DNA of 15,941 nucleotides from Chitinivibrionales bacterium (GCA_014729375.1 WJKA01000260.1:1-15941), one strand, 5' to 3'. Positions 1,522-15,941 are shown, counted from the stretch's first letter. Notes: a model not told the origin generated them from the sequence alone. A program made the numbers and translations.

Positions 1522-2931
1522 TCAATCCGGCTTCTGTGTCTCTTCAAGAAATTCGATATACAAGCGGTAATTTACCACATGCCGCTTGACAATGAATGTC
1601 GCTCCTGCTCTCAGGAGGATTGTGAAGAACCCGTAACGCAGCACCCGTTTGAAATCCCATACCAGGGCATCAAGTACAATATTTGCAACAAGCATCAATC
1701 CTTCAATAGAAACGCGCCACAACGAGTAGAATGTGCGGTACGCATTCAGCACGTCTTCCTGAAGCATCCAGGGACTGATTGATTTTGGCTGAAAAACAAG
1801 AAACATGCCGTTAAAATATTCCCACCGTGTATGATAGAGACGGTGTTCACCGCATATTTTCTCGTAGAGACGGGTCCCGGGAAACGGCGTAAGGATCATA
1901 AACTGCACGGTGTCGATATGGTGACGGAGCGCAAAATCAACTGTCTCATGGATCGTCTCTCGCGTATCATTGTCTTCACCAAACATGAACATGCCATGAA
2001 TGCTTATCCCTTTTTTATGGATAATATCGATCGCATTTTCTATATCGCTTTTTGTCTGCGATTTGTGAAGCGCTTTAAGGGTGGCATCGTTGATCGATTC
2101 GAATCCGATAAAAAAGAACCGGCACCCGGTCTGTTCCATGCGCTCAATCATTTCCGGATCTCTGGAAATGTCCGACCGTACCTGCGCAGTCCAGGTGATA
2201 TCGAGATTCTCCTGTTCGATCAGATCACAGAGGCGTTGAATACGGTTCCTGTTTGCCGTGAAATTATCATCATAAAAGAAAATATCGCGGGTTGTAAAAT
2301 AGCGCAGCGCATGCCTGATCTCCCGGACAATCCGCTCAGCAGACTGCATGCGGAATTTTTTCCCAAAAATTTTTGTCACCGTGCAGAAGTTGCAGTCGAA
2401 CGGACAGCCGCGGGAGGTCATTACAGGAATAATAGCCATCGATTCGACACCTTCAAGAAGTGAATATTCCACCAGCGGAAGGTTTTCGATATTGTCGATC
2501 GGCCTGCCCCCTATGATTTTTTCTTCATGATCGCGCTCGATAATATCAACAATATTGCCCTCAGCTTCGCCCGTCACCACCGTATCGGCTACTTCAACGA
2601 AATCTTCAGGTACCAGCGATGCGTGAATTCCACCCACAATCACTCTGGATTCCGGGTACACTTTTTTTATCTGATATGCCAGAAGCTTGGCCCTGTTTGC
2701 ACTCACAGTCAATGCTGATAAACAGTAAACATCCGCCTTAATTGTAAAAGGATCAATTTTCCGTGAGAGAATGTTTTCATTGTATATTTTTACCGAATAT
2801 CCGGCATTATGAAGGATTGTTCCGAGATACAGGCAGCCTGTCAAGGGAAGACGCATGTAATTTTCAAAGACATTTGTCTCCGCGCCCGACGGTTCGATAA
2901 AGGCAATCCTTCTGGCATGCCCGGAATTCAT
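1522..2931 (-). CDS. B12-binding (class B) radical SAM protein
   Basis: An N-terminal cobalamin-binding domain (RIAFIEPSGAETNVF..., VIVGGIHASLVPEDF) is followed by a radical SAM core with CPFDCNFC (CxxxCxxC) and a glycine-rich SAM motif (FFIGFES). No SPASM-type extra Cys cluster is present. Start chosen at ATG 2931-2929 (MNSGHARRIAF), which overlaps the upstream gene's stop as ATGA. The track ORF extends 88 codons further, and I read those as non-coding. Confidence 0.85.
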   Translation of the reverse strand: MNSGHARRIAFIEPSGAETNVFENYMRLPLTGCLYLGTILHNAGYSVKIYNENILSRKIDPFTIKADVYCLSALTVSANRAKLLAYQIKKVYPESRVIVGGIHASLVPEDFVEVADTVVTGEAEGNIVDIIERDHEEKIIGGRPIDNIENLPLVEYSLLEGVESMAIIPVMTSRGCPFDCNFCTVTKIFGKKFRMQSAERIVREIRHALRYFTTRDIFFYDDNFTANRNRIQRLCDLIEQENLDITWTAQVRSDISRDPEMIERMEQTGCRFFFIGFESINDATLKALHKSQTKSDIENAIDIIHKKGISIHGMFMFGEDNDTRETIHETVDFALRHHIDTVQFMILTPFPGTRLYEKICGEHRLYHTRWEYFNGMFLVFQPKSISPWMLQEDVLNAYRTFYSLWRVSIEGLMLVANIVLDALVWDFKRVLRYGFFTILLRAGATFIVKRHVVNYRLYIEFLEETQKPD

Positions 2932-3413
2932 CGTGCCCGTTCCGCTATGAGAATGCTTGCGCCCGTAAAAATAAAAACAGTCCACCACAGTTGGGTGCTG
3001 AAAGAAAAGACAAGGATAAATACCGCGGAAATGGAAAGAAGCAGCAGTCCGGTCAAAAGAAAAATATAGCTTTTTCTGCAGAGAAAAAACGCCGCGAAAA
3101 AGGCCAATCCTAAAAAGCCGATAAAAAACGGCCATAAATCCGAAAGAACGGACCATGAGGAAAAATTCGCATACAAGGCCAATCCACTGAAACATACAAG
3201 GTAAATGCCGGGAATAAGATATCCCGGCTCTTGTCTTCCGCGGGCGCTGAATATACCAAGAAATCCAATACCAAGTACGGTTATTATCAAAGGCCAGAGT
3301 TTGTGAATGAATGAAAGCGGAGTAAATGCTTCAACGGCAAGAAGAATGCCAATTGCTATCAATAAAAATGCAAATCGGCCGTTACGACGGGCTTTTTCGT
3401 GGACCTGGTCCAT
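2928..3413 (-). CDS. Small polytopic membrane protein (about 5 TM helices), translationally coupled to the radical SAM gene
   Basis: Start ATG 3413-3411 is preceded by GAGGT with a 5-nt spacer. The protein MDQVHEKARRNGRFAFLLIAIGILLAVEAF... is almost entirely hydrophobic helices. The stop TGA 2930-2928 overlaps the rSAM ATG (ATGA). Confidence 0.65.
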   Translation of the reverse strand: MDQVHEKARRNGRFAFLLIAIGILLAVEAFTPLSFIHKLWPLIITVLGIGFLGIFSARGRQEPGYLIPGIYLVCFSGLALYANFSSWSVLSDLWPFFIGFLGLAFFAAFFLCRKSYIFLLTGLLLLSISAVFILVFSFSTQLWWTVFIFTGASILIAERAR

Positions 3414-3487: not shown

Positions 3488-3516
3488 TTGACACCAACCC
3501 GAAAAAGTGCTATATT
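3488..3516 (+). promoter_or_regulatory. Near-consensus sigma70 promoter for the GntR-led operon (TTGACA-17-TATATT)
   Basis: TTGACA at 3488-3493, a 17-nt spacer, TATATT at 3511-3516. This lies about 45 nt upstream of the GntR ATG and back-to-back with the divergent promoter. Confidence 0.6.
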
Positions 3517-3523
3517 TATGGTG

Positions 3524-3546
3524 TAATAGTTAACTATGACAATAGT
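3524..3546. promoter_or_regulatory. Candidate GntR/YtrA operator: 16-bp near-palindrome TAATAGTTAACTATGA plus repeated (C/T)AATAGT half-site
   Basis: The two halves are 7/8 symmetric around TT|AA (3531/3532). The half-site AATAGT recurs at 3525 and 3541. The element sits between the + promoter -10 and the GntR start codon, consistent with autoregulation. Confidence 0.4.
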
Positions 3547-3562
3547 ATAACAGGAATCTCGC

Positions 3563-3964
3563 ATGGCATTCTCTTTTATGCTGAGCAATTCAAGCGGCGT
3601 GCCGTTCTACCGCCAGATCGTTAACCAGGTTATCTACGGCGTTGCCAATGGTATGCTCAAGCCGGGCGAGCGCCTGCCCACGGTACGCCGGCTCGCGGTG
3701 GACCTCCAGGTCAACCTCAATACAATCGCCAAAGCCTATAGCGAGCTCGAGTTGCGGGGCATTCTCAACACGCAGCAGGGCACCGGTACTTTTGTGTCCG
3801 ATAACAATGAAGGGATTGATCCCGGAGAAAAAGAAAAGGAAATAGAGCGCCTGTGCAGCAGGTTTCTTGATGAGGTTGCTGCGATGGGGGCGCGATCGGG
3901 CGATGCAATTGCGGTGCTCAGAAAAATCGAAAATAAACGGAAAAAAGCGACAAGGGGGACTTGA
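3563..3964 (+). CDS. GntR-family transcriptional regulator, short YtrA-like subtype (133 aa)
   Basis: N-terminal winged-HTH typical of GntR: PGERLPTVRRLAVDLQVNLNTIAKAYSELELRGIL. The short C-terminal tail resembles the YtrA subfamily. RBS AGGAA lies 6 nt upstream. Confidence 0.85.
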   Translation: MAFSFMLSNSSGVPFYRQIVNQVIYGVANGMLKPGERLPTVRRLAVDLQVNLNTIAKAYSELELRGILNTQQGTGTFVSDNNEGIDPGEKEKEIERLCSRFLDEVAAMGARSGDAIAVLRKIENKRKKATRGT

Positions 3965-3967
3965 CCA

Positions 3968-4942
3968 ATGGCTAAAACTGCCGACACATATCACGAGCGA
4001 CAGGAATTCAATCCAATGCTCTGGACAATCCGCAAACAACTGTTTGCGCTCCGCCGGTACGCTCTCAACAGCATACTGCTTGTCTGTTCAATCGCAGCGT
4101 TTATCATGTTCAGGCGCACCGGACTGTTTCCGGTATGGATCCAGTCCGCCGCTACTATTCTGTTGCTGTATATCACGTTTTCAATCCGTATCGCGTTTGA
4201 GTGGGAACGTGTCCCTGTTCTTCGTCTTGGAAAACACATTACAACAAAAGGTCCGGGCCTCTTTTTTCTCATTCCTGTTCTGGATATCCCTTATGATTAT
4301 GTTGATTGCCGAATCATGGTAACAGATTTCTCGGCCGAGAAAGTGCTGACAAAAGATGCGGTGCCTGTTTTTGTCGATGCCATAATTTTCTGGATGATCT
4401 GGGACGCGGGCAAGGCAAAGCTCGAGGTCGAGAATTACCGCAATGCAGTCCCGTTAAGCGCCAAGACCGCGCTCCGGGACATTATCGGCAAGACCACCCT
4501 GGCCCGGCTGTTGACGGACCGTGATGAAATCGGACAGGAGCTCCAGAAAATTCTGGATGCCAGGACCAACCCCTGGGGAATCACATCGCTGTCGGTCGAA
4601 ATAAAAGACATTGTCCTTCCCCGGGAACTCGAGGATTCCATGAGCAGGGAAGCGCAGGCCGAACGGGAGCGAAACGCACGGGTGATCCTCGGCTCCGCGG
4701 AAATCGATCTTGCGGAAAAATATTCCCGGGCATCTGAAAAATATAAAAACAACAGCGAAGCATTGACTCTGAGATCGCTCAACCTGTTGCTTGACGCAGT
4801 AAAAAACAGAGGCTCAATGATCCTGGTGCCTTCAGAAGTACCGCACCTGATGAACAAAGCGGTGGCAGCGGCCCTGGCAAAAAAAAACGGCCCGGGCGGT
4901 TCGGACCCGCTGGAAAACCTCGACACCGAAACGGAGTCATGA
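3968..4942 (+). CDS. Stomatin/SPFH (band 7) family membrane protein
   Basis: N-terminal hydrophobic segments are followed by an SPFH domain carrying the stomatin signature TNPWGITSLSVEIKDIVLPRELEDSM (T..WGI.v..VEIkDI.lP), then a charged/coiled C-terminus. The start lies 4 nt after the GntR stop. Confidence 0.85.
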   Translation: MAKTADTYHERQEFNPMLWTIRKQLFALRRYALNSILLVCSIAAFIMFRRTGLFPVWIQSAATILLLYITFSIRIAFEWERVPVLRLGKHITTKGPGLFFLIPVLDIPYDYVDCRIMVTDFSAEKVLTKDAVPVFVDAIIFWMIWDAGKAKLEVENYRNAVPLSAKTALRDIIGKTTLARLLTDRDEIGQELQKILDARTNPWGITSLSVEIKDIVLPRELEDSMSREAQAERERNARVILGSAEIDLAEKYSRASEKYKNNSEALTLRSLNLLLDAVKNRGSMILVPSEVPHLMNKAVAAALAKKNGPGGSDPLENLDTETES

Positions 4943-4943
4943 C

Positions 4944-5144
4944 ATGGATACAGTAGCTGAAATGCCGGTATCGTGCCCGGCTGCACCGCAAAACAATACT
5001 CTCGAAAATCGTTTTCTGATTATGCACATGGTACGCTTTGCACAGTCATTGCAGGGGACCCGCGCCAACCTGCCCGCGTATGGACCGGTTATGACAAAAA
5101 GCGACATGGGTGAAGAAAACAGAAACCACCAAAGGAGCTCATAA
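4944..5144 (+). CDS. Possible small protein (66 aa) translationally coupled between the SPFH and ABC ATPase genes
   Basis: The ATG at 4944 is preceded by GGAG (4933-4936). Its stop TAA (5142-5144) overlaps the ABC ATG (TAATG). No recognisable domain or TM. It could instead be a 200-nt intergenic spacer holding the strong AAAGGAG RBS of the ATPase. Confidence 0.3.
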   Translation: MDTVAEMPVSCPAAPQNNTLENRFLIMHMVRFAQSLQGTRANLPAYGPVMTKSDMGEENRNHQRSS

Positions 5145-5836
5145 TGGCTTTACTGGAATTACAGGAGATCACAAAGACGTTTCAGAAAGGCGAGCGTGAG
5201 GTCCATGCACTGCGCGGGATCGACCTGCTTGTAGACAAAGGAGAATTCCTCGCCATCGTCGGGCCGTCTGGAAGCGGCAAAACTACGCTGCTCAATATTG
5301 TCGGCTGCCTCGATACGCCGTCAGGAGGCAATATCGTATACAACGGCGGGGACCTCGGTGCGATGAATGAGCGGGAGCTTTCGGGATATCGCAAGAAAAA
5401 TATCGCGTTCATATTTCAGTCGTACAATCTTATTCCGGTGCTTACGGTACAGGAAAACGTGGAGCTTCCGCTGGTTATCGAAAAAACTCAGAGCAAAAAC
5501 GAGATGACGAGGCGGTCGCTGGAAATAATTGATACCGTCGGATTAAAGGGTATGGCCGATCGTCTGCCGCGCGAGCTTTCAGGCGGACAGGAGCAGCGCG
5601 TAGCAATTGCCCGCGCTCTTGTTAAAAATCCCCTGGTCGTTCTCGCCGATGAACCCACTGCGAACCTTGATTCGCATACGGCCGAAGACATCATGTCGGT
5701 TATGGAAAAAATGAACCGCGACCTTAATACAACGTTCATTTTCTCAACGCATGACAAGATGGTGCAGGAGCACGCAAAAAGAGTAATTATGCTTCATGAC
5801 GGGCAGGTGTCGTCGGATGAAAGGAAGCAGACATGA
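5144..5836 (+). CDS. ABC transporter ATP-binding protein, LolD/MacB/FtsE-type
   Basis: Walker A GPSGSGKTT; Q-loop; ABC signature LSGGQEQRVAIARAL; Walker B VVLADEPTANLD; H-loop STHD. Perfect SD AAAGGAG lies 6 nt upstream. Confidence 0.95.
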   Translation: MALLELQEITKTFQKGEREVHALRGIDLLVDKGEFLAIVGPSGSGKTTLLNIVGCLDTPSGGNIVYNGGDLGAMNERELSGYRKKNIAFIFQSYNLIPVLTVQENVELPLVIEKTQSKNEMTRRSLEIIDTVGLKGMADRLPRELSGGQEQRVAIARALVKNPLVVLADEPTANLDSHTAEDIMSVMEKMNRDLNTTFIFSTHDKMVQEHAKRVIMLHDGQVSSDERKQT

Positions 5837-7086
5837 ATATGATTGCGCGTATTGCTTTTCGTAATATTATGCGCCACAAACGCCGTACCATTACCTCCGC
5901 GATCACCATCGCCGTGGGAATATGGTTCTATACGTTTATGGATTCGGTGATGGCCGGTCTTGACCGGGGCGGTATCGATAATATGATAGAACTGACGACT
6001 TCCGCGGTGAAAGTGCATACCAGCGCTTACCAGGAGGACAAAGAAGCATTCCCGCTCGACCACGGTATCCGGAACATGAGAAAACTGCGCAAGCTTCTCT
6101 CCGGCAATCCCCGAATAGCCGGAATTGCCCCGCGAACACGATTTATCGGACAGCTCTCCAACTACACCGAGGAAATACCGGTTATCGGAACGGTTATCGA
6201 CCCGGACCTTGACAGCTCGGTCTTTTCACTGGTTTCATACCTGGAAGGCGATTATTTTTCAGCCGGAAGCAGTCGTGAAATAATACTCGGTAAGGATCTC
6301 GCCGAAGAAATGGGAGTGGATATCGGCGGCTATATCACGCTGTATGCACTCACGCGGTACGAGAGCCGCAATGCCGATGAGTTCAAAGTAGCGGGAGTCC
6401 TGAAAACAACCGATCCTGAGCTTAACCGGAGTTCGGTGATGATATCATATGCCGCGGCAAATGAGTTCCTTGACCTGGAAGGACTTGTTACCGAAGCGAA
6501 TGTCGGGCTTATGCGCCGCGTTAATCTCAAAGACATGAAAAATGACGCACGCAAAGTAAAGGAACGGATCGAAACGACGTTTCCCGGTCTTGAACCCTCA
6601 ACCTTTATGGAGCTTGCGGCGGGATTTCTGGAGCTTGCAAAGAGTAAACGCGCGTTCGGTGTTGTCTTCCTGCTGATCCTGCTGGTTATTGCCGCCGTGG
6701 GCATATTCAACTCGGTCCTTATGAGTGTGTATGAACGCATACGTGAAGTCGGCGTGCTTCGTGCCCATGGAATGAAATCCGGCGAGGTATCGGCCATGTT
6801 TGTACTGGAAGGTTTTATGACAGGAGTGCTTGGCTCGATTTTCGGCCTTGTGCTGGGTATTGCAACGAATCTCGTTCTGGTCACGTATGGCTATCCGATC
6901 GACAAGATAGCCGGCGATGTAGTTGTTGACGGTTTCCCGGTCTGGGGCACTATTTACGGAGAGTGGAACAGCGCAACCATGGTTTTTTTGTTTTTCTTCG
7001 GGATTGCCGTTGCTACCGTTGCCGGGATTATTCCCGCGCGCAAGGCGGGTAAAATGGAAGTAACCCATGCACTGAGGTTTGTTTGA
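5833..7086 (+). CDS. ABC transporter permease, FtsX/MacB/LolC-E type (TM1 + large periplasmic domain + 3 C-terminal TMs)
   Basis: The ATG overlaps the ATPase stop (ATGA). The N-terminus IAFRNIMRHKRRTITSAITIAVGI is typical of this family, followed by a roughly 230-aa extracytoplasmic domain and a C-terminal FtsX 3-helix bundle. Confidence 0.9.
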   Translation: MNMIARIAFRNIMRHKRRTITSAITIAVGIWFYTFMDSVMAGLDRGGIDNMIELTTSAVKVHTSAYQEDKEAFPLDHGIRNMRKLRKLLSGNPRIAGIAPRTRFIGQLSNYTEEIPVIGTVIDPDLDSSVFSLVSYLEGDYFSAGSSREIILGKDLAEEMGVDIGGYITLYALTRYESRNADEFKVAGVLKTTDPELNRSSVMISYAAANEFLDLEGLVTEANVGLMRRVNLKDMKNDARKVKERIETTFPGLEPSTFMELAAGFLELAKSKRAFGVVFLLILLVIAAVGIFNSVLMSVYERIREVGVLRAHGMKSGEVSAMFVLEGFMTGVLGSIFGLVLGIATNLVLVTYGYPIDKIAGDVVVDGFPVWGTIYGEWNSATMVFLFFFGIAVATVAGIIPARKAGKMEVTHALRFV

Positions 7087-7121
7087 ACCCTCGTGCAAAA
7101 ATACATTGAAAAGGAAAATAC

Positions 7122-8360
7122 ATGCTCTATTTGCTTAAACTTGCTTTTCGAAATCTCCTGCGCAACACCCGTCGATCATTGCTTGCAGTATTATCGGTAA
7201 TGCTTTCGATTATGTTCATAGTATTTATGCAGGGCATGCTGGGCGGATTTATGGGCTCACTGGTACGGAATTACACCCGCAATGAGACAGGGCATATCCG
7301 GATAGCAACCCGGGATTTTGTCGACAAGGTCCGCTTTTACCCGGTTACCGAAAATATCGAAAACCCGGACTCGCTGATTGCCGGGATCAAGGATGATCCC
7401 GACATTGCGAAGCATATCGATATTATAACCAAACGGATCTATTTCGGTGTGCTTCTGAACAACAGGGGAAACAATAAAAACGCGGTTGCGCTTGCCGGAG
7501 ATCCTGCAACCGAAAAAGACCTGCTGCTGCTTCATAAGTCAATCCTTCCGGGCGGGCGCTATATCAGAAACGAACGCGAAACTATTATCGGTGCCGGTCT
7601 GGCTGAAGCGCTTGATTTCAAGGTAGGAGATACGGTTAAAGTGATGGCCCAGGGAGGCGATTACGCACTTCACTTGCGGAAGTTTGCAGTAGTGGGCATA
7701 TTCGAGTCGGGGCTGAAAGACATGGACGAACGGATATTTCAGATACCGCTCTCCGACGCCGAAAAACTGCTTCGCATGAAAGACGAAACACAGCAGATAA
7801 TACTCATGCTCGACAATTACCATCGCGCAGAACAGGTCGCATCCGCAATTGAGCAAAAGATCGGGACACCAGAGCTTTCGATTCAGCCGTGGCGGGAAGC
7901 CGGAATATACGGCAATTATGTAACGTTGGCCGCAAAAATGTACAACATTATCTACTTCGTAATTGCACTCCTTGGAGCGTTTATCATCGGTAACATAATG
8001 ATGATGGTGGTGCTGGAGCGGCGCCGTGAGATCGGCGTGCTCAAATCAATGGGGCTTTCGCGGATAAAAATCCTGTTTCTTTTCATATCGGAAGGTATTA
8101 TTCTGGGGCTTGCCGGGAGTCTTGCAGGCGTAGCCGGAGGAAGTCTTGTGTCGTGGTATTTTCATATTTTCGGCCTTGATTTCAGTAAAGCGCTGAGCTC
8201 GGTGAATATGCCGATGGACAGTGTGGTCTATACCACAATTGACACGGGGGGATTGGCAGTTGCCGTTGTACTGGGAACCCTCGTATCCGGCCTGGTATCG
8301 ATTATTCCCTCCTGGCAGGCCGCGCGTATGAATGCTGTGAATGCAATAAAAAGCGTATGA
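7122..8360 (+). CDS. Second FtsX/LolC-E-type ABC permease
   Basis: N-terminus LAFRNLLRNTRRSLLAVLSVMLSI with the same architecture. RBS AAGGAAAA precedes the start. It is paralogous to the upstream permease, giving a hetero-permease arrangement as in LolCDE. Confidence 0.9.
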   Translation: MLYLLKLAFRNLLRNTRRSLLAVLSVMLSIMFIVFMQGMLGGFMGSLVRNYTRNETGHIRIATRDFVDKVRFYPVTENIENPDSLIAGIKDDPDIAKHIDIITKRIYFGVLLNNRGNNKNAVALAGDPATEKDLLLLHKSILPGGRYIRNERETIIGAGLAEALDFKVGDTVKVMAQGGDYALHLRKFAVVGIFESGLKDMDERIFQIPLSDAEKLLRMKDETQQIILMLDNYHRAEQVASAIEQKIGTPELSIQPWREAGIYGNYVTLAAKMYNIIYFVIALLGAFIIGNIMMMVVLERRREIGVLKSMGLSRIKILFLFISEGIILGLAGSLAGVAGGSLVSWYFHIFGLDFSKALSSVNMPMDSVVYTTIDTGGLAVAVVLGTLVSGLVSIIPSWQAARMNAVNAIKSV

Positions 8361-8394
8361 TATAGAATTGAAAAACTGTCCTGAGGAGGTTACT

Positions 8395-9129
8395 ATGAAA
8401 ATCACAATTTTGCTTGCTGTCTTGTGCACTGCCGCGACCCTGTATGCTCTTACCGGAGAGGAAATTCTCGAAAAAATGGATAAAAACCGCGATCACAAGA
8501 CAATTATCTATGAAGGCACGATGGAAATCCATATCGATGACGAAGTCCGCACGAAAAAGATGTCGGCGCGGGCAATGAGCAATGATAAAGACAGGGCTGT
8601 GGTGGAATTTATCAATCCTGAAGATGACGGCACCAAATATCTCATGATCGGCGATAATCTCTGGATTTACTTTCCCGGTGAAGAAGATGTTGTCAAGATA
8701 TCGGGCCACATGCTCAAGGAGGGTATGATGGGCTCTGATGTCTCGTATGAAGATGCGCTGGAATCGGATGAGCTGTCGGACACCTATGAAATCCGGCTTA
8801 TCGGTGAAGAAAAAATCGGTGAGTATGACTGCTATGTCATCGAGCTGAATGCAAGAGTCAGGAATGCCCCCTATTTCAAGAGAAAAATGTGGGTGGCCAA
8901 ATCCAATTTTGTGCAAATCAAAGAAGAAATGTATGCAAAAAGCGGCAAACTGCTTAAAACGGCAAATACCCTGGAGATACAAACAATAGGTAACCGGGAT
9001 TTTGCAGTCAAAGTGGAAATGGTGAACAAGCTGCGCAAGAACAGCAGGACTGTTTTTACCATGAAAGATATTACATTTGATAAACCGCTTGATGAATCCG
9101 TTTTCTCGATGCGGTATCTGCGGAGGTGA
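8395..9129 (+). CDS. Secreted LolA-like (outer-membrane lipoprotein-sorting protein family) periplasmic protein
   Basis: Start chosen at ATG 8395 (MKITILLAVLCTAATLYA, an SPI signal peptide) because GAGGAGG lies 5 nt upstream; the track ORF starts 9 codons earlier. The size (~245 aa) and a beta-rich pattern with conserved-looking D/W motifs resemble the LolA-like DUF often found next to FtsX permeases. The assignment is by context and composition, not a hard motif. Confidence 0.6.
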   Translation: MKITILLAVLCTAATLYALTGEEILEKMDKNRDHKTIIYEGTMEIHIDDEVRTKKMSARAMSNDKDRAVVEFINPEDDGTKYLMIGDNLWIYFPGEEDVVKISGHMLKEGMMGSDVSYEDALESDELSDTYEIRLIGEEKIGEYDCYVIELNARVRNAPYFKRKMWVAKSNFVQIKEEMYAKSGKLLKTANTLEIQTIGNRDFAVKVEMVNKLRKNSRTVFTMKDITFDKPLDESVFSMRYLRR

Positions 9130-9202
9130 TGCCGGATACCGGCTACTGGATACACCGGATGGTGAATGGTGGAGCAGGGCAATACACTGCTTTTTGTGTT
9201 GG

Positions 9203-9223
9203 GCATGGCCTTCCAGGCCATGC
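9203..9223 (+). other. Perfect 9-bp stem / 3-nt loop hairpin (GCATGGCCT-tcc-AGGCCATGC) in the LolA-like/OMP intergenic region
   Basis: Seen directly. It is preceded by CTTTTTG and not followed by a clean T-tract. It may be a partial terminator or attenuator, or a processing site. Confidence 0.4.
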
Positions 9224-9313
9224 GTAATAATACAGGATTTTGAATGGAGCTTATAATTTTTTTCCCATAATATTGAGCATTGACCGATGATCACTGAACG
9301 CTGAGTTTCTGAA

Positions 9314-10432
9314 ATGATTTCACTGCGAAACACCCGCACCTTCCTGTTTGCTCTTACCATTATCTGCACAGCGTTTGCTGCAGACAATTCCGGCGGCCTG
9401 CGGCTCCACGGATCGATGTACTCGGACCTGGGTGTTGTGCAGGAATACGATGCGGATGATACGGATACATTCAAGTTTACCGGATTGACAAACCTCTCGC
9501 TCAATTTCAGGAACACCAACCGCAGATACGGAAAAATCGAAGGACTTCTCGATCTGTTCATGCCGTATGGCGTTGCCGCCGACCGGATATTTGAAACAAT
9601 CCCGGATGATGCATTTCCCGACAGCAGTGTCGATGAATTTGTCACGCTGTTCTCCGTACGCGGCTCGCCGCTGCTTCTTGATGTACGCAATTTGTACTTT
9701 TCATTTTATCTGCCGTTTGTCGACATTACAGTCGGTCGCCGGATCATCAATTTCGGCAAAGGGTCCATTTTTTCCCCTGTTGACATTTTTTCATCAGTTG
9801 ACCTTACCGACCTGAATTACCGCCGCTCAGGGAGCGATATTATCAGCCTTCGGTTCCCCTTCGGCTTGCTCTCCGGGTGCGATATTGTTGCGGGCCTTCC
9901 TCTTTTCGACGACTCCTATGCTGCGGCCGCTAAATTGTTTACAACTGTCAAAGGCTTCGATTTCAGCCTGGTCGGGCTCTATAAGAATGCCGGTACCTCG
10001 CCCGCGAAAAATACGCAAACAACTGCAGGGATCGCGTTTAAGGGAGATATCGAGATCGGCGCGTACGGTGAAGCAGTTGCTCATTATGATCATGACAGGG
10101 AAATGCTTTTTTTCGAAGCCATGGCCGGCGCGGATTACTCACTAAGGGAGCGCTGGATATTCACGGCGGAATACATGTACAAGGACCCCGGCTATGCCAG
10201 CGCGCTTCGGGGACAGCATAATGCATTTGGCTCGGTGCAATATGCTTTTAATGATATCATGAATATTTCCACCGGACTGATCGGCACGATTGATGACCGG
10301 CAGGCTGTCGGGATTGTCCGGTATTACTATAATATCCTGCAAAATGTCGACTGGACCGTTTATATTCAGGGCGTCGGCTCCAACGAAATTGCGCTTGTTA
10401 ACTATATGACACGCGTTGAAATAAAATTCTGA
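9314..10432 (+). CDS. Predicted outer-membrane beta-barrel protein (signal peptide, C-terminal ...VEIKF beta-signal)
   Basis: SPI signal MISLRNTRTFLFALTIICTAFA|ADN. The sequence shows alternating hydrophobic/polar beta-strand periodicity throughout and is rich in Y/G/D/N. It ends in the aromatic-terminated pattern V-E-I-K-F typical of BAM substrates. No family recognised. Confidence 0.6.
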   Translation: MISLRNTRTFLFALTIICTAFAADNSGGLRLHGSMYSDLGVVQEYDADDTDTFKFTGLTNLSLNFRNTNRRYGKIEGLLDLFMPYGVAADRIFETIPDDAFPDSSVDEFVTLFSVRGSPLLLDVRNLYFSFYLPFVDITVGRRIINFGKGSIFSPVDIFSSVDLTDLNYRRSGSDIISLRFPFGLLSGCDIVAGLPLFDDSYAAAAKLFTTVKGFDFSLVGLYKNAGTSPAKNTQTTAGIAFKGDIEIGAYGEAVAHYDHDREMLFFEAMAGADYSLRERWIFTAEYMYKDPGYASALRGQHNAFGSVQYAFNDIMNISTGLIGTIDDRQAVGIVRYYYNILQNVDWTVYIQGVGSNEIALVNYMTRVEIKF

Positions 10433-10900
10433 TCCGCGCCGCAAATAGCTGATTATCAGAATCATGCTTCTTTCCGCCAGTTTCTTTGAATTATTTTTGC
10501 AGAATCGACGCTTTTTTATTAGATTATATATAATCCTGCATTCCGCAGTTGAGTGTGGATGATACGTGTAAGATGTTGTGTGAGATCGAATTGTGAAAAA
10601 AGGAGTCCTACCCGGGGAGGTAAGGCGAGGCTTTTCGCAATTCAAGGTTGCGCAACAGCTTACGCCTAGCGCCGCAATTCAACTACGGAATTCAGGATAA
10701 TAATTCAGTAAAAGGAAGGTAGTTCCGGGTGCTGAACGCTCCGGCATAAAGTTGAGGGAGAAATCAGTTCAGTAAAAGGCTTTCTCCAGTAATTTCCTTT
10801 CCTTTTTTCATTATCAGTATGGCAGTTCAGTTATTCAGACTAAATGGCGGTCTGAATGTAACTCTCTGATTAAAAAACACTCACATTTCAAGGGGGGCCT

Positions 10901-13492
10901 ATGAAAAGCCTTATTGCTGTCCTTTTTTCTCTTTCAACAGCCTGGGCGGTGACATTGTATGTATCTCCAGACGGTGATGATTCAAATGACGGCTCCGAAT
11001 CGGGTCCGTTCAAAACATTGCATCATGCCCGGGACGCCATACGGAGCGCAGGAAGCGACGAAAAGATTGTCATTCTGAATGAAGGCAATTATTTCCTCGA
11101 TGAACCGCTCCGGTTTGATGAAAATGACAACGGCACCGAGCAGAACCCGGTAGTATGGAAGGGTGAAGACAACAAAGATGTTGCTGTTTACGGCGGCAGA
11201 AGGATTACCGGCTGGGAAGTGTATCAACAGGTTGAAGGCAAAATGCCGGGAGTACCTCATTACCCGCTCTCCGGCACAATATACCGGGCGCAACTGCCTG
11301 ATCAAAACTGGAAATTCTGGAACCTTGCCGAAAACGGGAAACGCTCGCCGCAGGCCCGGCACCCCAATCACCGGGACCCCCGTCCAAACGGGCATGGATG
11401 GGGCACGCTTCGTCATATCAATGCCGACGGCACACCGGCAAGCAGGACCAGCAATAATTTCAGATATGCCGAGGGATGGCTTCCGGACAACTGGGAATAC
11501 AGCAACGCCAGGATGATTTTCGGTCCCGGGTGGTTTACCGATGTGCGGCCGATAAGCAATGTCGACTATTCCGCCCGTATTATTACCATTTCACCGAGCA
11601 CCAATCCGACCGCTTCGTACTGGGTTGAAGGTGCAAAAGAGTTTATCGACCAGCCCGGCGAGTGGGCAATTTCCGATGACGGCTATGTGTATTACTGGCC
11701 GAAAAATACCCCGATCGATCAACAGGTCATTGTCGGTGGCACAATGACACGCGCAATCGAGTTTATCGGAAGCTCCCCTTCAAATCCTGTCAAGTATATT
11801 ACGCTCGAAAACCTGCTGATATCAACATCTAACTCGACTGATGAAGTCTATTCGAGCAAGACATCGCCGCAGTCACCCGCGGATGAAGACCACGAAAACA
11901 ATTGTGAAATCGATGAAATGCGTCTGGGCCTCGTCCATTTTGAGAATGCCGAATATTGCACAGTACGGTTCTGCAAAATATGGAATGCCGGCACCCAGGG
12001 CGTATGCATGAACTATCACGCACAGCATAATACGGTATATGGATGCTGGATAGAGGGAATCGGGCACCACGGCGTTTTCCTGACCAGCTACTGCTGCTCT
12101 TCGGGCCCGTGGGACAATATCAACAGCTTCAATACTGTCAAGAATAACTATATTCACGATTACGGCAAGCTGATGAGCGGCGTGGCCGGTGTAGGCCTCT
12201 ACCAGAGCGGTGATAATGAAATAACGTACAACGAAATCCGCCGCTGCGCGCGCTATGGCTTGTCGATGAAAGGCCAGCGGTCCGGCGTTTTCGGTGTTAC
12301 ATTGACGGAAGATATGCTTCTCTGCGACCGGAATGTCATGCAGTATAACGATATTTCCCATGTGCTCCATTCGACTGTTGACGGCGGCGCGTACGAGAGC
12401 TGGCATCCCAGCCAGGGAAACATTCTGAAAAACAATGTATTCCACGACCTGTATCACATAACGTGTGCAGGAAGGGGCGGTGACACCAACGAGGACCCTG
12501 CCGGATTCTGCGGTCTGTCGCAGCGACACTGCATGTACCCCGATGCCGGCCCGAATCCTGAAATCGATGACAATGCTGCGTATAACTGTGTCGACATGGT
12601 CAACTGGTATGTCGAGGGGTTCGGCCAGCCGCTCCCGTTCACCAGGTCGGCTGCAAAGCGGATCGCTTCAGGCAGGGGTTTTGACATTGAGGAAATCGGT
12701 CTGCTCTCCGATTTCCCCTGGCACACGCCCGGACAGGACAAAAACGAGTATGAATGGCCGGATGAAATCATCTGGGACCCCGACCTGATCGGCTATTTCG
12801 AAAGCCTGTTCATGAACGGCGACGGGCTTGATGCCGAATATTATTCATCAAGCTCTCTGTCCGGCACGCCGGTCGAAACAACAGTCGAACCCTATCCCGG
12901 TTTCGACTGGACATCGAATAAAAATGTCAGGTTGACAGGATGGGTTGTGCCGCTTTTTTCCGAAGAATACCGGTTCTGCGCAGACGCCACCGGTACGGTG
13001 CGAATCTGGATAGATGATCAGCAGGTGCTGACCGAATCCGCGCCGACCTATCAGAAAGTTCATTTCGGCGATTTTATCCAGCTCCAGGGAGGACAACCCT
13101 GCGCGATAAAAATCGAATCAATCGGTGGAAGCGAACTCAGTATCGACTGGTACAGCCGGACCCAGCCGATCCAGGTTATTCCCCAGTCGCAACTGTTCTC
13201 CGGCAATACTGCCCCCGACCCGGTCGGCGCCGTGAATAGCACGAGGAGCGTTACTCCGCCTTCACTGGGCGTTACTGTCGCAGGAAACCTTCTGTCAATT
13301 GCCGTGCCGGATAATACCGGCCCTGTCAGCATTACGCTGATCAGGCCAAACGGCTCGGCAGCACATACGACACACGGCCATGGTAATGATATGTACCGGA
13401 TCGATGCTTCACCATATGCATCCGGTGTTTACATGATGGCTGTCAGGGCGGGTAATGCAACCATGTTCCGCAAAGTGGTGCTGGGAAAATAG
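10901..13492 (+). CDS. Secreted multidomain protein: right-handed parallel beta-helix (pectate-lyase-like) domain + PA14 domain + T9SS C-terminal sorting domain
   Basis: Signal peptide MKSLIAVLFSLSTAWA. YVSPDGDDSNDGSESGPFKTLHHA is the typical N-terminal cap of beta-helix enzymes. Repeated N.xxHD/G beta-helix rungs follow (NNYIHDYG, CWIEGIGHHGVFL). PA14: DGLDAEYYSSSSL...WVVPLFSEEYRF...IWIDDQ. C-terminus ASGVYMMAVRAGNATMFRKVVLGK matches the T9SS CTD. RBS AAGGGGGG. Confidence 0.85.
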   Translation: MKSLIAVLFSLSTAWAVTLYVSPDGDDSNDGSESGPFKTLHHARDAIRSAGSDEKIVILNEGNYFLDEPLRFDENDNGTEQNPVVWKGEDNKDVAVYGGRRITGWEVYQQVEGKMPGVPHYPLSGTIYRAQLPDQNWKFWNLAENGKRSPQARHPNHRDPRPNGHGWGTLRHINADGTPASRTSNNFRYAEGWLPDNWEYSNARMIFGPGWFTDVRPISNVDYSARIITISPSTNPTASYWVEGAKEFIDQPGEWAISDDGYVYYWPKNTPIDQQVIVGGTMTRAIEFIGSSPSNPVKYITLENLLISTSNSTDEVYSSKTSPQSPADEDHENNCEIDEMRLGLVHFENAEYCTVRFCKIWNAGTQGVCMNYHAQHNTVYGCWIEGIGHHGVFLTSYCCSSGPWDNINSFNTVKNNYIHDYGKLMSGVAGVGLYQSGDNEITYNEIRRCARYGLSMKGQRSGVFGVTLTEDMLLCDRNVMQYNDISHVLHSTVDGGAYESWHPSQGNILKNNVFHDLYHITCAGRGGDTNEDPAGFCGLSQRHCMYPDAGPNPEIDDNAAYNCVDMVNWYVEGFGQPLPFTRSAAKRIASGRGFDIEEIGLLSDFPWHTPGQDKNEYEWPDEIIWDPDLIGYFESLFMNGDGLDAEYYSSSSLSGTPVETTVEPYPGFDWTSNKNVRLTGWVVPLFSEEYRFCADATGTVRIWIDDQQVLTESAPTYQKVHFGDFIQLQGGQPCAIKIESIGGSELSIDWYSRTQPIQVIPQSQLFSGNTAPDPVGAVNSTRSVTPPSLGVTVAGNLLSIAVPDNTGPVSITLIRPNGSAAHTTHGHGNDMYRIDASPYASGVYMMAVRAGNATMFRKVVLGK

Positions 13493-13939: not shown

Positions 13940-15130
13940 CTACTTGACAGCAGATTCCTTGCGCAGGCGGGCCTTTTTCGAATCAGCCTTCTCTTCTTTT
14001 ATCAAATACTGGCCGCTTGCAGGATTTGTTGTAGTTGCTTTGCGCAAAACTTTGTCGTTGAGTCGCTGTCCTTTCATGTTATATATCGAGTTCTGAACAT
14101 CTTTCTGAAGGTTCAGCGGCGCTTTGGCCTGAAATCGCTGTTCCACGCCGGTCTCGCAGTACGCAGTATCAGGTCCGTATACATAAATAACATTGCATGA
14201 GCCCTCATAATCCTGCGATTTCCTGCCGTCATTGGTCTCAGCCCAGACAATATATTCAACAACTTCCTGTTCCTCACAAGTCACAAATGTTGTCTCATAT
14301 ACCGCCTCCATTGTACGGATATCCTCGCCGTCCGGCTGGCCGTTCTCCTCGAAAAAATCGTAGACATACCAGATTGTATCGGCAGGCTCAACACAGGGTT
14401 TCGGCGGATATTCAAACGAAAGAGTCAACGGTGTCGGCGGATAGTCGTCTCCGGGAGCACAATCAGGATTGATCCACTCTATCTCAAATGCACAAAAATC
14501 TTTTCTTTCGCCGAATGCACTGGCCGGAACAACAACCGAGTCGGTTGAACCGGGAGCTTTCCACCAGAGCTCCGCAATGGAGGTGCCTGTTTTTTCATAA
14601 AAATAAAACTTCAGGTCATGCTTTCCTGCAGTGAGGTTTACCGTTGCCTGATATTCCGATGCCGAAGGAACACCGTCAGTACCCAGCCCCGGATCCAGCG
14701 CTTCATCAATTGTGGTATACATAAAAACGGCTGAGGGATCATCACTGATTATTTCCCCGTCAATTTCAATAAACATGGCTTCGTCGGCCTTTATCGTAAA
14801 CACATAGTCGCCATCCGAGGGGACCAGAAATGAATCAGCGATACCTACGACAATATAGTTGTCGAATTTCCATTGCATCGGATTTGGCATCTTGTTGGCA
14901 AACACATTCGGCCCCGATTCACTGATTGAATCAATCCACTCGGTATCTGAAACAACCGATTCGGAAAGAATCGAATCATACGCCGCAGTTCTGTACCACA
15001 CTGAATCGCTTCCTTTGCCAAAAGCAGTTTCCAACTCATCGGTCCCCGCGACATAGAACTTGATGGAACCGTATGACGAAAACACCATTAAGGCCAGAAA
15101 AGGAATTATAAAACGCACCATCCGTTGCAT
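13940..15130 (-). CDS. Secreted PA14-domain protein with Cys-rich middle region and probable T9SS C-terminal sorting domain
   Basis: Start chosen at ATG 15130-15128 (MQRMVRFIIPFLALMVFSSYG signal peptide) with GAAGGAGG 6 nt upstream; the track begins at a TTG two codons earlier. PA14 motifs: DGDYVFTIKADEAMFIEIDGEII...GKHDLKFYFYEKTG...ELWWKAPG. C-terminus SIYNMKGQRL...ASGQYLIKEEK...KK resembles a T9SS CTD. Confidence 0.8.
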   Translation of the reverse strand: MQRMVRFIIPFLALMVFSSYGSIKFYVAGTDELETAFGKGSDSVWYRTAAYDSILSESVVSDTEWIDSISESGPNVFANKMPNPMQWKFDNYIVVGIADSFLVPSDGDYVFTIKADEAMFIEIDGEIISDDPSAVFMYTTIDEALDPGLGTDGVPSASEYQATVNLTAGKHDLKFYFYEKTGTSIAELWWKAPGSTDSVVVPASAFGERKDFCAFEIEWINPDCAPGDDYPPTPLTLSFEYPPKPCVEPADTIWYVYDFFEENGQPDGEDIRTMEAVYETTFVTCEEQEVVEYIVWAETNDGRKSQDYEGSCNVIYVYGPDTAYCETGVEQRFQAKAPLNLQKDVQNSIYNMKGQRLNDKVLRKATTTNPASGQYLIKEEKADSKKARLRKESAVK

Positions 15131-15222
15131 AAGCAACCTCCTTCGATGAAAAAATGTTATCTCCCGACTGTTTTTGCCACGTTTTTTTTGCTTCTCCCCA
15201 AAAAAAACAATCGTGCTTTAAA

Positions 15223-15654: not shown

Positions 15655-15941
15655 TCAATAATTCTTGAAATTAAACGTGAGTCCCAGTGCCATTGTCTGT
15701 TTCAACTGGACATCATTTTTATAGGTGTCCGGCTGTTTGTCCCTGTCATAGACAAGCTGTAAATACAGATTAAGCATTATAAGCCGGGTAAAATTGATAT
15801 TCAGGCTGTTTTCCCAGTTAATATCCGGATACCGCCAATCTGCTGCCGTGGTATTATCGTCCGGATTGGCCTCCGCCAGTCCCTCGTAGTCATCCTGATC
15901 GGAATACAATAAAGCTTCATACACCCTCAGGAGGCTTGAAA
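15655..15941 (-). CDS. 3' end (partial; start lies beyond window) of a probable outer-membrane protein
   Basis: The C-terminus ...MALGLTFNFKNY* ends in an alternating aromatic/hydrophobic pattern with a terminal Y, as in beta-barrel OMPs. The ORF runs to the window edge and is rich in D/N/Y/W. Family unknown. Confidence 0.4.
   Translation of the reverse strand, partial: SSLLRVYEALLYSDQDDYEGLAEANPDDNTTAADWRYPDINWENSLNINFTRLIMLNLYLQLVYDRDKQPDTYKNDVQLKQTMALGLTFNFKNY

Follow-up and report, generated by a model that had tools for sequence, protein, structure and literature searches.

The stretch of DNA considered here (the window) is the whole of a 15,941-nt contig from a metagenome-assembled genome (MAG) of the Chitinivibrionales (Fibrobacterota). 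Seven genes on its plus strand, between positions 3563 and 10432, probably form a self-repressed operon for an exporter that carries a hydrophobic or amphiphilic molecule across the cell envelope. They encode a YtrA-like GntR repressor, a slipin, the ATPase and two permeases of a type VII ATP-binding cassette (ABC) transporter, a secreted carrier with the LolA fold and an outer-membrane beta-barrel. The locus belongs to a large exporter class, found in several phyla, whose members use a LolA-fold carrier and a private barrel instead of the duct made by a membrane-fusion protein (MFP) and TolC, and whose engine is a type VII ABC transporter or an MMPL/RND protein. To our knowledge, the transit of hydrophobic molecules other than lipoproteins, lipopolysaccharide and phospholipids through the diderm periplasm is poorly understood. 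The class is now approachable through its barrel family (~2,000 representative clusters, no Pfam model), a fixed pairing of carrier and barrel, and a precise promoter and operator; the cultured Chitinispirillum alkaliphilum holds an MMPL version and Ralstonia an ABC version. In addition, the unexpected association of a stomatin with a YtrA-type repressor offers a tangible starting point for the function of bacterial slipins, which has long been unclear.

A first description, made from the sequence alone, had seen the same seven genes, and all seven were recovered as open reading frames (ORFs) on the plus strand. Pfam assigned to them, in order, GntR, Band_7/SPFH, ABC_tran, MacB_PCD with FtsX (twice) and PF17131, and the last protein had no match. 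The five genes that make up the core of the exporter are as follows.

5144..5836, plus strand: LolD-like ABC ATPase, 230 aa (ABC_tran 2.7e-33; Walker A, signature, Walker B and H-loop intact in the translation)
5833..7086, plus strand: type VII ABC permease 1, 417 aa (Pfam MacB_PCD and FtsX)
7122..8360, plus strand: type VII ABC permease 2, 412 aa (Pfam MacB_PCD and FtsX; ~25% identical to permease 1)
8395..9129, plus strand: secreted carrier with the LolA fold, family PF17131 (LolA_like / TP_0789-like), 244 aa from the ATG (PF17131 7.6e-56)
9314..10432, plus strand: outer-membrane beta-barrel of 18 strands, 372 aa, from a family without a Pfam model (signal peptide, C-terminal Phe, AlphaFold2 (AF2) model)

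Homologues of the barrel were found in the Chitinivibrionales, other Fibrobacterota, Cloacimonadota, Delongbacteria and Spirochaetota. The order ABC-FtsX-FtsX-PF17131-barrel was kept in every fetched locus with enough flanking sequence (~28), at identities of 35–75% and in differing surroundings. The conserved block anticipated by the sequence-only reading therefore exists as a five-gene core, colinear across four phyla (Fibrobacterota, Cloacimonadota, Delongbacteria and Spirochaetota); the stomatin, which had been counted as part of it, does not belong to the core, since the leader varies among loci. No HlyD or OEP family was detected in the window, nor in the related loci with listed called genes, in agreement with the claim that an MFP and TolC are lacking.

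The engine itself can be exchanged. A PF17131 protein and a member of the barrel family lie 3′ of an MMPL engine in C. alkaliphilum (L037) and in locus L011, and near MMPL genes in L008. In L011 the two kinds of module stand in tandem, the MMPL-driven one (11107-15978) directly after the ABC-driven one, and MMPL genes are also neighbours of the ABC module in L008 (589-3486 and 10724-13345) and L010 (6564-8549). A short MMPL fragment at 10724-10969 of L008, between two modules, looks like the remnant of a rearrangement. A weak tblastn match obtained when the barrel was searched against plasmids led to a Ralstonia pickettii plasmid encoding a PF17131 protein, an ABC ATPase, two FtsX permeases fused into one and a 'hypothetical protein' which matches the barrel profile (hhalign probability 99.1, E 8e-19), the parts being rearranged there. 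The barrel family was always found next to PF17131. As both the engine (ABC or MMPL) and the leader are swapped across loci, the constant unit is the carrier with its barrel, and the engine and control module are exchangeable. Several copies can be present in one genome (L018 and L022 derive from a single MAG, and L008, L009 and L011 have second pairs), and the local repressors belong to three families: GntR in the window, HTH_34/MarR-like in L001 and TetR in Bacteroidota (PMC10434189).

The structural identity of the two constant parts, on which the sequence-only reading had staked its proposal, held up for both. The carrier scores 189.1 bits against PF17131 (cut-off 30) and begins with a predicted signal peptide (MKITILLAVLCTAATLYA/LTGEE). 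Its AF2 model (pLDDT 89.4) shows a LolA-type open beta-sheet with lid helices, of the PF17131 branch, and Foldseek returned TM-scores of 0.81–0.83 to 9tp6 (P. gingivalis LolA3), 4z48, 3bk5 and 3buu, compared with ~0.40–0.48 and 10–14% identity for canonical LolA structures. It is thus a LolA-like protein rather than a canonical LolA. Residues 100-122 (ISGHMLKEGMMGSDVSYEDAL) are the most conserved stretch and form a helical lid, which is modelled with lower confidence.

The barrel, identical to NCBI 'hypothetical protein GF350_06635', was modelled with 45 homologues as a confident all-beta structure (pLDDT 89.4, pTM 0.81). At the level of fold it matches the 18-strand channels OprD/Occ, AlgE, Wzi and maltoporin, so the suggestion that it stands in for LolB is not supported: a porin-like channel is not a LolB analogue by fold. 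An invariant motif (D137, GRQIxN.GKG, SP.D.F, R171, G173, D175) falls within a loop of 30 residues that joins strands 5 and 6, is well ordered in the model and takes the position of the porin constriction loop L3; this loop may lie inside the lumen. A profile of the family retrieved, from 1.84 billion representatives, 2,059 representative clusters with E<=1e-3, of which 888 reach E<=1e-10. The window barrel has no match in Pfam, DUF1302 included (PF06980, gathering threshold 23.2 bits). Sub-threshold matches to DUF1302 were returned for 11/46 family members at E<=1 (best 0.004), and the Ralstonia member reaches 19.8 bits over the region of the GRQ motif, under the cut-off of 23.2. These scores suggest a distant relative of DUF1302, not a member. 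Nor does the window barrel resemble the 16-strand Omp85 barrels of the BamA-TamA type. Homology to the Borrelia proteins BBJ25 and BBJ29 was considered and rejected, with hhalign probabilities below 1% for both the original profile and one broadened with spirochaete, paralogous and Ralstonia members. BBJ29 (L036, B. burgdorferi lp38 12008-13009; 'unknown function'), encoded just 3′ of the LolA-like BBJ28, aligns at GRQ..G.G alone (E 0.07–0.23); this is not significant, and amounts to a hint rather than evidence of homology.

The ABC part has the architecture of LolCDE: two FtsX-type permeases with four transmembrane helices each and a periplasmic Sabre/Porter domain, a separate ATPase, and full-length alignment to lolCE. 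The scores place all three proteins well short of the equivalogs. The best NCBIfam match of the ATPase is LolD (TIGR02211), at 227.5 bits with a cut-off of 307.75, and the permeases score 113.5 and 138.6 bits, respectively, against lolCE (TIGR02212; cut-off 362.45). By these measures the transporter is Lol-like in build and not a Lol equivalog. In searches of the PDB, permease 1 matched LolF (1e-18), LolE (2e-18), YtrF (1.6e-15) and MacB (3e-6), and permease 2 matched LolF (7e-22) and LolE (2e-15). The Lol-like build proposed from the sequence is confirmed, and MacB is a far weaker match (MacB 1e-5 to 1e-6, LolF/LolE 1e-18 to 1e-22). The locus also differs from MacAB-TolC in its separate ATPase, in the porin-like character of its barrel and in having no adjacent MFP/TolC duct.

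The predicted control elements of the operon lie in and ahead of its first gene.

3488..3516, plus strand: sigma-70-type promoter (TTGACA, 17 nt, TATATT, extended -10 TG; 11/12 in the consensus scan)
3522..3541, plus strand: predicted GntR operator, the inverted repeat TGTAATAGT-TA-ACTATGACA, directly 3′ of the -10
3563..3964, plus strand: YtrA-like GntR repressor, 133 aa (Pfam GntR 1.1e-13; winged helix-turn-helix (wHTH) at residues 16-78, short C-terminal part)

The promoter is the top match of the region in the consensus scan. Across nine aligned GntR-led loci, neither the -35 hexamer nor the inverted repeat varies, and the -10 is conserved, irrespective of whether the engine is ABC or MMPL. 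The pattern TGTAMTR-N6-YAKNACA has one exact site in the window, where 0.14 matches would be expected with up to one mismatch allowed. Each of 10 further GntR-led loci holds it once, in the corresponding position upstream of the GntR gene, and no fetched locus without a GntR gene has it. We infer autorepression from this distribution, which is what a YtrA-type GntR protein acting on its own promoter would be expected to leave. The assignment to the YtrA subfamily, already made by the sequence-only reading, is consistent with a wHTH domain followed by a short C-terminal part (~50 aa), with the position of the gene as the first of an ABC operon, with the palindrome in its own promoter and with the best NCBIfam matches, Rv1152 and PmtR (YtrA-type, both under their cut-offs). 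The protein is 67–72% identical in L007, L008, L009, L011 and L025.

Whether the seven genes form one transcript is less certain. The close spacing described earlier was correct for four junctions and overlooked two gaps, one of 201 nt between the SPFH and ABC genes and one of 184 nt before the barrel gene.

4943..5143, plus strand: spacer of 201 nt (contains a 66-aa ORF at 4944-5144, not conserved; probably non-coding)
9130..9313, plus strand: spacer of 184 nt (hairpin GCATGGCCT-TCC-AGGCCATGC at ~9204-9224, no T-run; fold z = -2.05)

A single strong promoter with its operator at 3488-3541 favours one transcript, and the two gaps leave that claim no more than plausible. The 66-aa ORF was rejected as a gene because tblastn found no counterpart in any fetched related locus and the slipin-ABC spacer is shorter in most relatives (34–74 nt; 34 nt in L007). 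The 201-nt spacer holds no remnant of the HTH_34 or 223-aa genes that occupy the leader of L001. The interval 9130-9313 contains neither an intrinsic terminator nor a promoter by the consensus scan, just the hairpin, and the corresponding gap in relatives ranges from under 10 nt up to ~400 nt. No Rfam family (riboswitch or known RNA) matched the gaps at the gathering threshold, and no tRNAs were present.

The second gene of the operon encodes the slipin.

3968..4942, plus strand: stomatin/slipin-family SPFH membrane protein, 324 aa (Band_7 2.7e-30; 106 bits, cut-off 23.6)

NCBI names this protein 'slipin family', and the closest of the solved proteins is human stomatin (3.5e-40), followed by PH stomatin (8e-37) and QmcA (3e-26). 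Hydrophobic stretches at residues ~34-50 and 54-76 correspond to the N-terminal hairpin of stomatin, with Band_7 after them; given this hairpin and the homology with stomatin, the SPFH domain should face the cytoplasm. The usual operon partner of a prokaryotic stomatin or slipin is NfeD. No NfeD gene lies beside the slipin gene in the window, L007, L037-L039 or L042, where its partner is always the GntR gene, and among the fetched slipin-bearing loci slipin is always directly 3′ of GntR. In the window the slipin gene begins 3 nt past the GntR stop codon, and in several relatives the two genes overlap. Besides the window, L007, L008, L009, L011, L025, L039 and L041 have the pair ahead of the core, with identities to the window of 67–73% in those compared (L007, L008, L009, L011 and L025).

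The sequence-only reading had treated repressor and stomatin as parts of one machine, with the stomatin physically coupled to the exporter. Comparison does not support this as a fixed arrangement. L001 is the closest relative of the window (barrel 60% and carrier 75% identical, with the same flanking genes on both sides), yet a 223-aa multi-pass membrane protein and an HTH_34/MarR-like regulator take the place of GntR and slipin there. The same alternative leader is found in other Chitinivibrionales and in Spirochaetota, and Cloacimonadota loci have neither type. A search based on the slipin showed the GntR-slipin pair ahead of the MMPL-PF17131-barrel module of C. alkaliphilum, and it also stands ahead of a reordered module in L038. 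In L042 (Bryobacteraceae, Acidobacteriota; 7595-8924) it occurs with no exporter gene within 8 kb, which suggests that the two genes form an independent unit. Upstream of the L042 pair is a palindrome that is related to the operator but variant. Since the leader is exchangeable, precedes MMPL engines and can stand alone, direct contact between stomatin and permease is not the most economical reading.

The stomatin might nevertheless be a structural part of the pump, a cytoplasmic slipin cage enclosing the ABC transporter and gating or clustering it. The GntR-slipin pair lies directly 5′ of exporter genes in at least 10 fetched loci, and human stomatin, the solved protein nearest to this slipin, forms cages that enclose membrane transporters (PMC12407830). 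A pump subunit would not be expected to precede two unrelated engines, to be missing from L001 and from every Cloacimonadota locus, or to stay with GntR where no exporter is near, as in L042; it is the regulator that is constant, not the pump, and we regard the cage as unlikely. We consider it more likely that the slipin acts in control, or marks a membrane domain, than that it keeps a fixed contact with the permeases, because it tracks the regulator rather than the engine and is replaceable by a pair consisting of a membrane protein and a wHTH protein. Tentatively, and against the odds as we see them, GntR and slipin may constitute a previously unrecognised two-gene switch, in which the slipin senses the state of the bilayer or a build-up of lipidic cargo and holds or releases the repressor. 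Such a switch would turn on whichever LolA-like/barrel exporter lies 3′ of it, ABC- or MMPL-driven, and would explain the translational coupling, the movement of the pair with the regulator rather than the engine, its replacement in situ and its occurrence alone. If true, this would assign a definite function in signalling to a bacterial stomatin. We found no paper joining GntR/YtrA with SPFH, slipin or stomatin. In L041 an extra 383-aa protein without a Pfam family is encoded between slipin and the ABC genes (9044-10195); it was compared with the barrel family and rejected as a member.

For the exporter as a whole, the simplest scheme is a relay starting at the inner membrane and passing by way of the carrier to the barrel, because a lidded LolA-fold protein and a private barrel are invariable neighbours of the ABC genes. 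GntR, bound at its operator, would block transcription until a ligand or membrane signal releases it. The permease pair would then pass ATP-driven movement to its periplasmic domains, by mechanotransmission as in LolCDE, and would extract the substrate from the outer leaflet instead of moving it across the membrane. Other type VII ABC systems (LolCDE, MacB, FtsEX and YbbAP) transmit ATP-driven movement to periplasmic domains in this way (PMC12646458). The cargo would enter the hydrophobic groove of the carrier and be handed to the barrel, which may release it at the cell surface or insert it into the outer membrane. The slipin, made together with the repressor and facing the cytoplasm, would be a partner of the repressor or a marker of a membrane patch, and less likely a subunit of the pump. 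An inducible exporter of lipids or other hydrophobes fits better than housekeeping lipoprotein sorting, given the exchange with MMPL engines, the three repressor families and the several copies per genome, and given the published analogues (AmeABCD, TOL_3187/8, the Bacteroidota operons and LolA3). The cargo is more likely to be a lipid, a pigment, a solvent-like compound or an amphiphile than bulk lipoproteins. Of the private shuttle from inner membrane through periplasm to outer membrane that the sequence-only reading envisaged, the parts and the synteny of the core stand; its novelty, its fixed leader and its LolB-like barrel are overstated or not supported.

Several points weigh against this scheme. 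The Hook of LolC, a beta-hairpin at P167-P179, recruits LolA. Both permeases and their orthologues appear 6 residues shorter here and unconserved relative to E. coli LolC/LolE, in an alignment whose ~20% identity is too low to be decisive. The modelled barrel has short periplasmic turns and no obvious docking site for the carrier, and the 184-nt gap with its hairpin could mean separate or attenuated expression of the barrel gene. The direction of transport, export, would follow from the known behaviour of type VII ABC and RND systems alone, and the sequences would fit a static bridge as well as a shuttling carrier. Finally, the fatty-ester phenotypes of DUF1302/DUF1329 genes in P. putida have also been read as catabolic (10.1101/2020.07.04.188060).

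Two other accounts of the machinery deserve attention. The locus could be a second, specialised Lol pathway, the ABC transporter extracting a subset of lipoproteins, for instance surface-exposed ones, which the carrier would chaperone and the barrel flip or insert. The nearest relatives of permeases and ATPase are LolF/LolE and LolD, the fold of the carrier is that of LolA, Spirochaetota and the FCB group, where the system is found, are rich in surface lipoproteins, and the authors of the study of Borrelia BBJ23-29 favour lipoproteins (PMC13078400). We nonetheless think this improbable. Every NCBIfam Lol equivalog score is far under its cut-off, the Hook appears unconserved in the tentative alignment described above, and local repressors of the ligand type with several paralogues per genome would be unusual for protein sorting. 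MMPL/RND engines drive the same carrier-barrel pair, and the HAE3 protein HpnN moves lipids (cited in PMC6394551). P. gingivalis LolA3, moreover, is without the LolA arginine and binds LolB weakly (PMC13103446).

There is likewise only a small chance that the system is a tripartite efflux pump in which the LolA-fold protein takes the place of the MFP as a static adaptor that links the permeases' periplasmic domains with the barrel, substrates being expelled directly to the outside. AmeB and AmeC have been assigned such a role as a proposal (PMC6394551), the genes for carrier and barrel always lie side by side with no MFP gene, and the fusion of a LolA-like domain to an MMPL protein in Thalassolituus fits a fixed assembly (PMC6304351). 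A monomer of ~25 kDa is, however, small for spanning the periplasm, a lidded hydrophobic groove is typical of carriers (PMC13103446), and the barrel is porin-like, with short periplasmic turns and no TolC-like tunnel. That independent genes lie together by chance, for which only the two intergenic gaps of ~200 nt would speak, is refuted by the synteny across four phyla, where the order persists at 35–75% identity while the flanks change.

The relay model can also be set against systems already described. LolCDE-LolA(-LolB) of E. coli, and LolDF elsewhere, share with the window a separate ATPase, a heterodimer of FtsX proteins with four transmembrane helices and a soluble LolA-fold partner. The window differs in scoring well below the LolC/E and LolD equivalog cut-offs, in its PF17131 carrier in place of a canonical LolA, in an outer-membrane partner that is an integral 18-stranded barrel and not a lipoprotein like LolB, and in having its own repressor and several copies per genome. 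Closer in logic are AmeABCD of Castellaniella defragrans (PMC6394551) and the Pseudomonas cassettes of DUF1302, DUF1329, BNR and RND genes (10.1101/2020.07.04.188060). These, too, combine an engine, a LolA-superfamily protein and a barrel of their own, lack an MFP and TolC, are inducible and handle hydrophobes; the window barrel is sub-threshold DUF1302-like, and among the structures close to the carrier is 4z48, which was deposited as a member of the DUF1329 family. Deletion of AmeABCD lowers monoterpene tolerance (PMC6394551). The AmeABCD engine is an HAE3 RND protein and that of the window a type VII ABC transporter, the barrel of the window is shorter (372 aa compared with 605) as is its carrier (244 aa compared with 451), and the window has a GntR-slipin leader and no BNR/Ycf48-like AmeC.

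The cluster BBJ23-BBJ29 of Borrelia burgdorferi, described in silico and proposed to export a non-polar ligand (PMC13078400), likewise contains a type VII ABC transporter, a LolA-like protein and a predicted outer-membrane barrel, and differs in its homodimeric permease, its two TPR proteins and a barrel, BBJ25, described as Omp85-like. In the Bacteroidota, the operons PG1175-81 of P. gingivalis and their counterparts in P. intermedia (TetR-ABC-MMPL-'lipoprotein-sorting protein') share a PF17131-type carrier (9tp6, the solved structure nearest to the window carrier, TM-score 0.81) and a local repressor with the window, unlike which they have an MMPL engine and a repressor of the TetR family. 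In the P. intermedia operons the sorting-protein gene is followed by genes for 'hypothetical proteins', and in PG1175-81 such genes stand next to it. Under low iron these MMPL operons show an induction of 13- to 136-fold (PMC10434189). TOL_3187/8 of Thalassolituus, in which a LolA-like domain and the MMPL protein are fused, shows induction on C28 alkane (PMC6304351). For the leader, ytrABCDEF of B. subtilis and pmtR-pmtABCD of S. aureus offer a short YtrA-like GntR gene at the head of an ABC operon with a palindromic operator in its own promoter; of the solved permeases YtrF ranks among the nearest, and PmtR is among the best NCBIfam matches, below its cut-off. Both belong to monoderm hosts, and neither has a LolA-like protein, a barrel or a slipin.

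The sequence-only reading held that this was not a described arrangement and called it an undescribed system. The combination of an engine, a LolA-superfamily protein and a dedicated barrel without MFP and TolC has in fact been published (PMC6394551, PMC13078400, PMC10434189, PMC13103446, PMC6304351), and 'undescribed' is too strong since the general design is known from relatives. The searchable literature does appear to be without an ABC version with a heterodimeric LolE/F-like permease and a barrel of the present family, and without the strict carrier-barrel pairing, the engine swap and the GntR-slipin leader with its operator.

The remainder of the window holds several other features. On the minus strand, divergent from the operon, are genes for a B12-binding radical SAM protein (1522-3195; best sub-threshold matches HpnJ, BchE and 'lipid biosynthesis B12/rSAM') and a LiaF-like membrane protein (2928-3413). 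The true start of the former is probably further downstream than that of the annotated long ORF, near 2931 as in L001. Both genes adjoin the exporter in L001, the closest relative, only, and a link between the cargo and the radical SAM neighbour was dropped because the other loci do not share it. An inverted repeat of 42 nt (1237-1278 / 1374-1415; 90% complementary, arms 95 nt apart) sits in an apparently non-coding stretch between the first ORF and the radical SAM gene, and could be a large hairpin or the remnant of a small mobile element. Beyond the barrel gene, a 468-nt gap (10433-10900) with a promoter-like site at 10505-10534 precedes a gene for a secreted 863-aa right-handed beta-helix/PA14 protein (10901-13492, plus strand). 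Further on lie genes for a 398-aa PA14 protein (13940-15136, minus strand) and the end of a DUF3078 protein (15658-15939, minus strand). These last three genes are syntenic with L001 and probably unrelated to the exporter.

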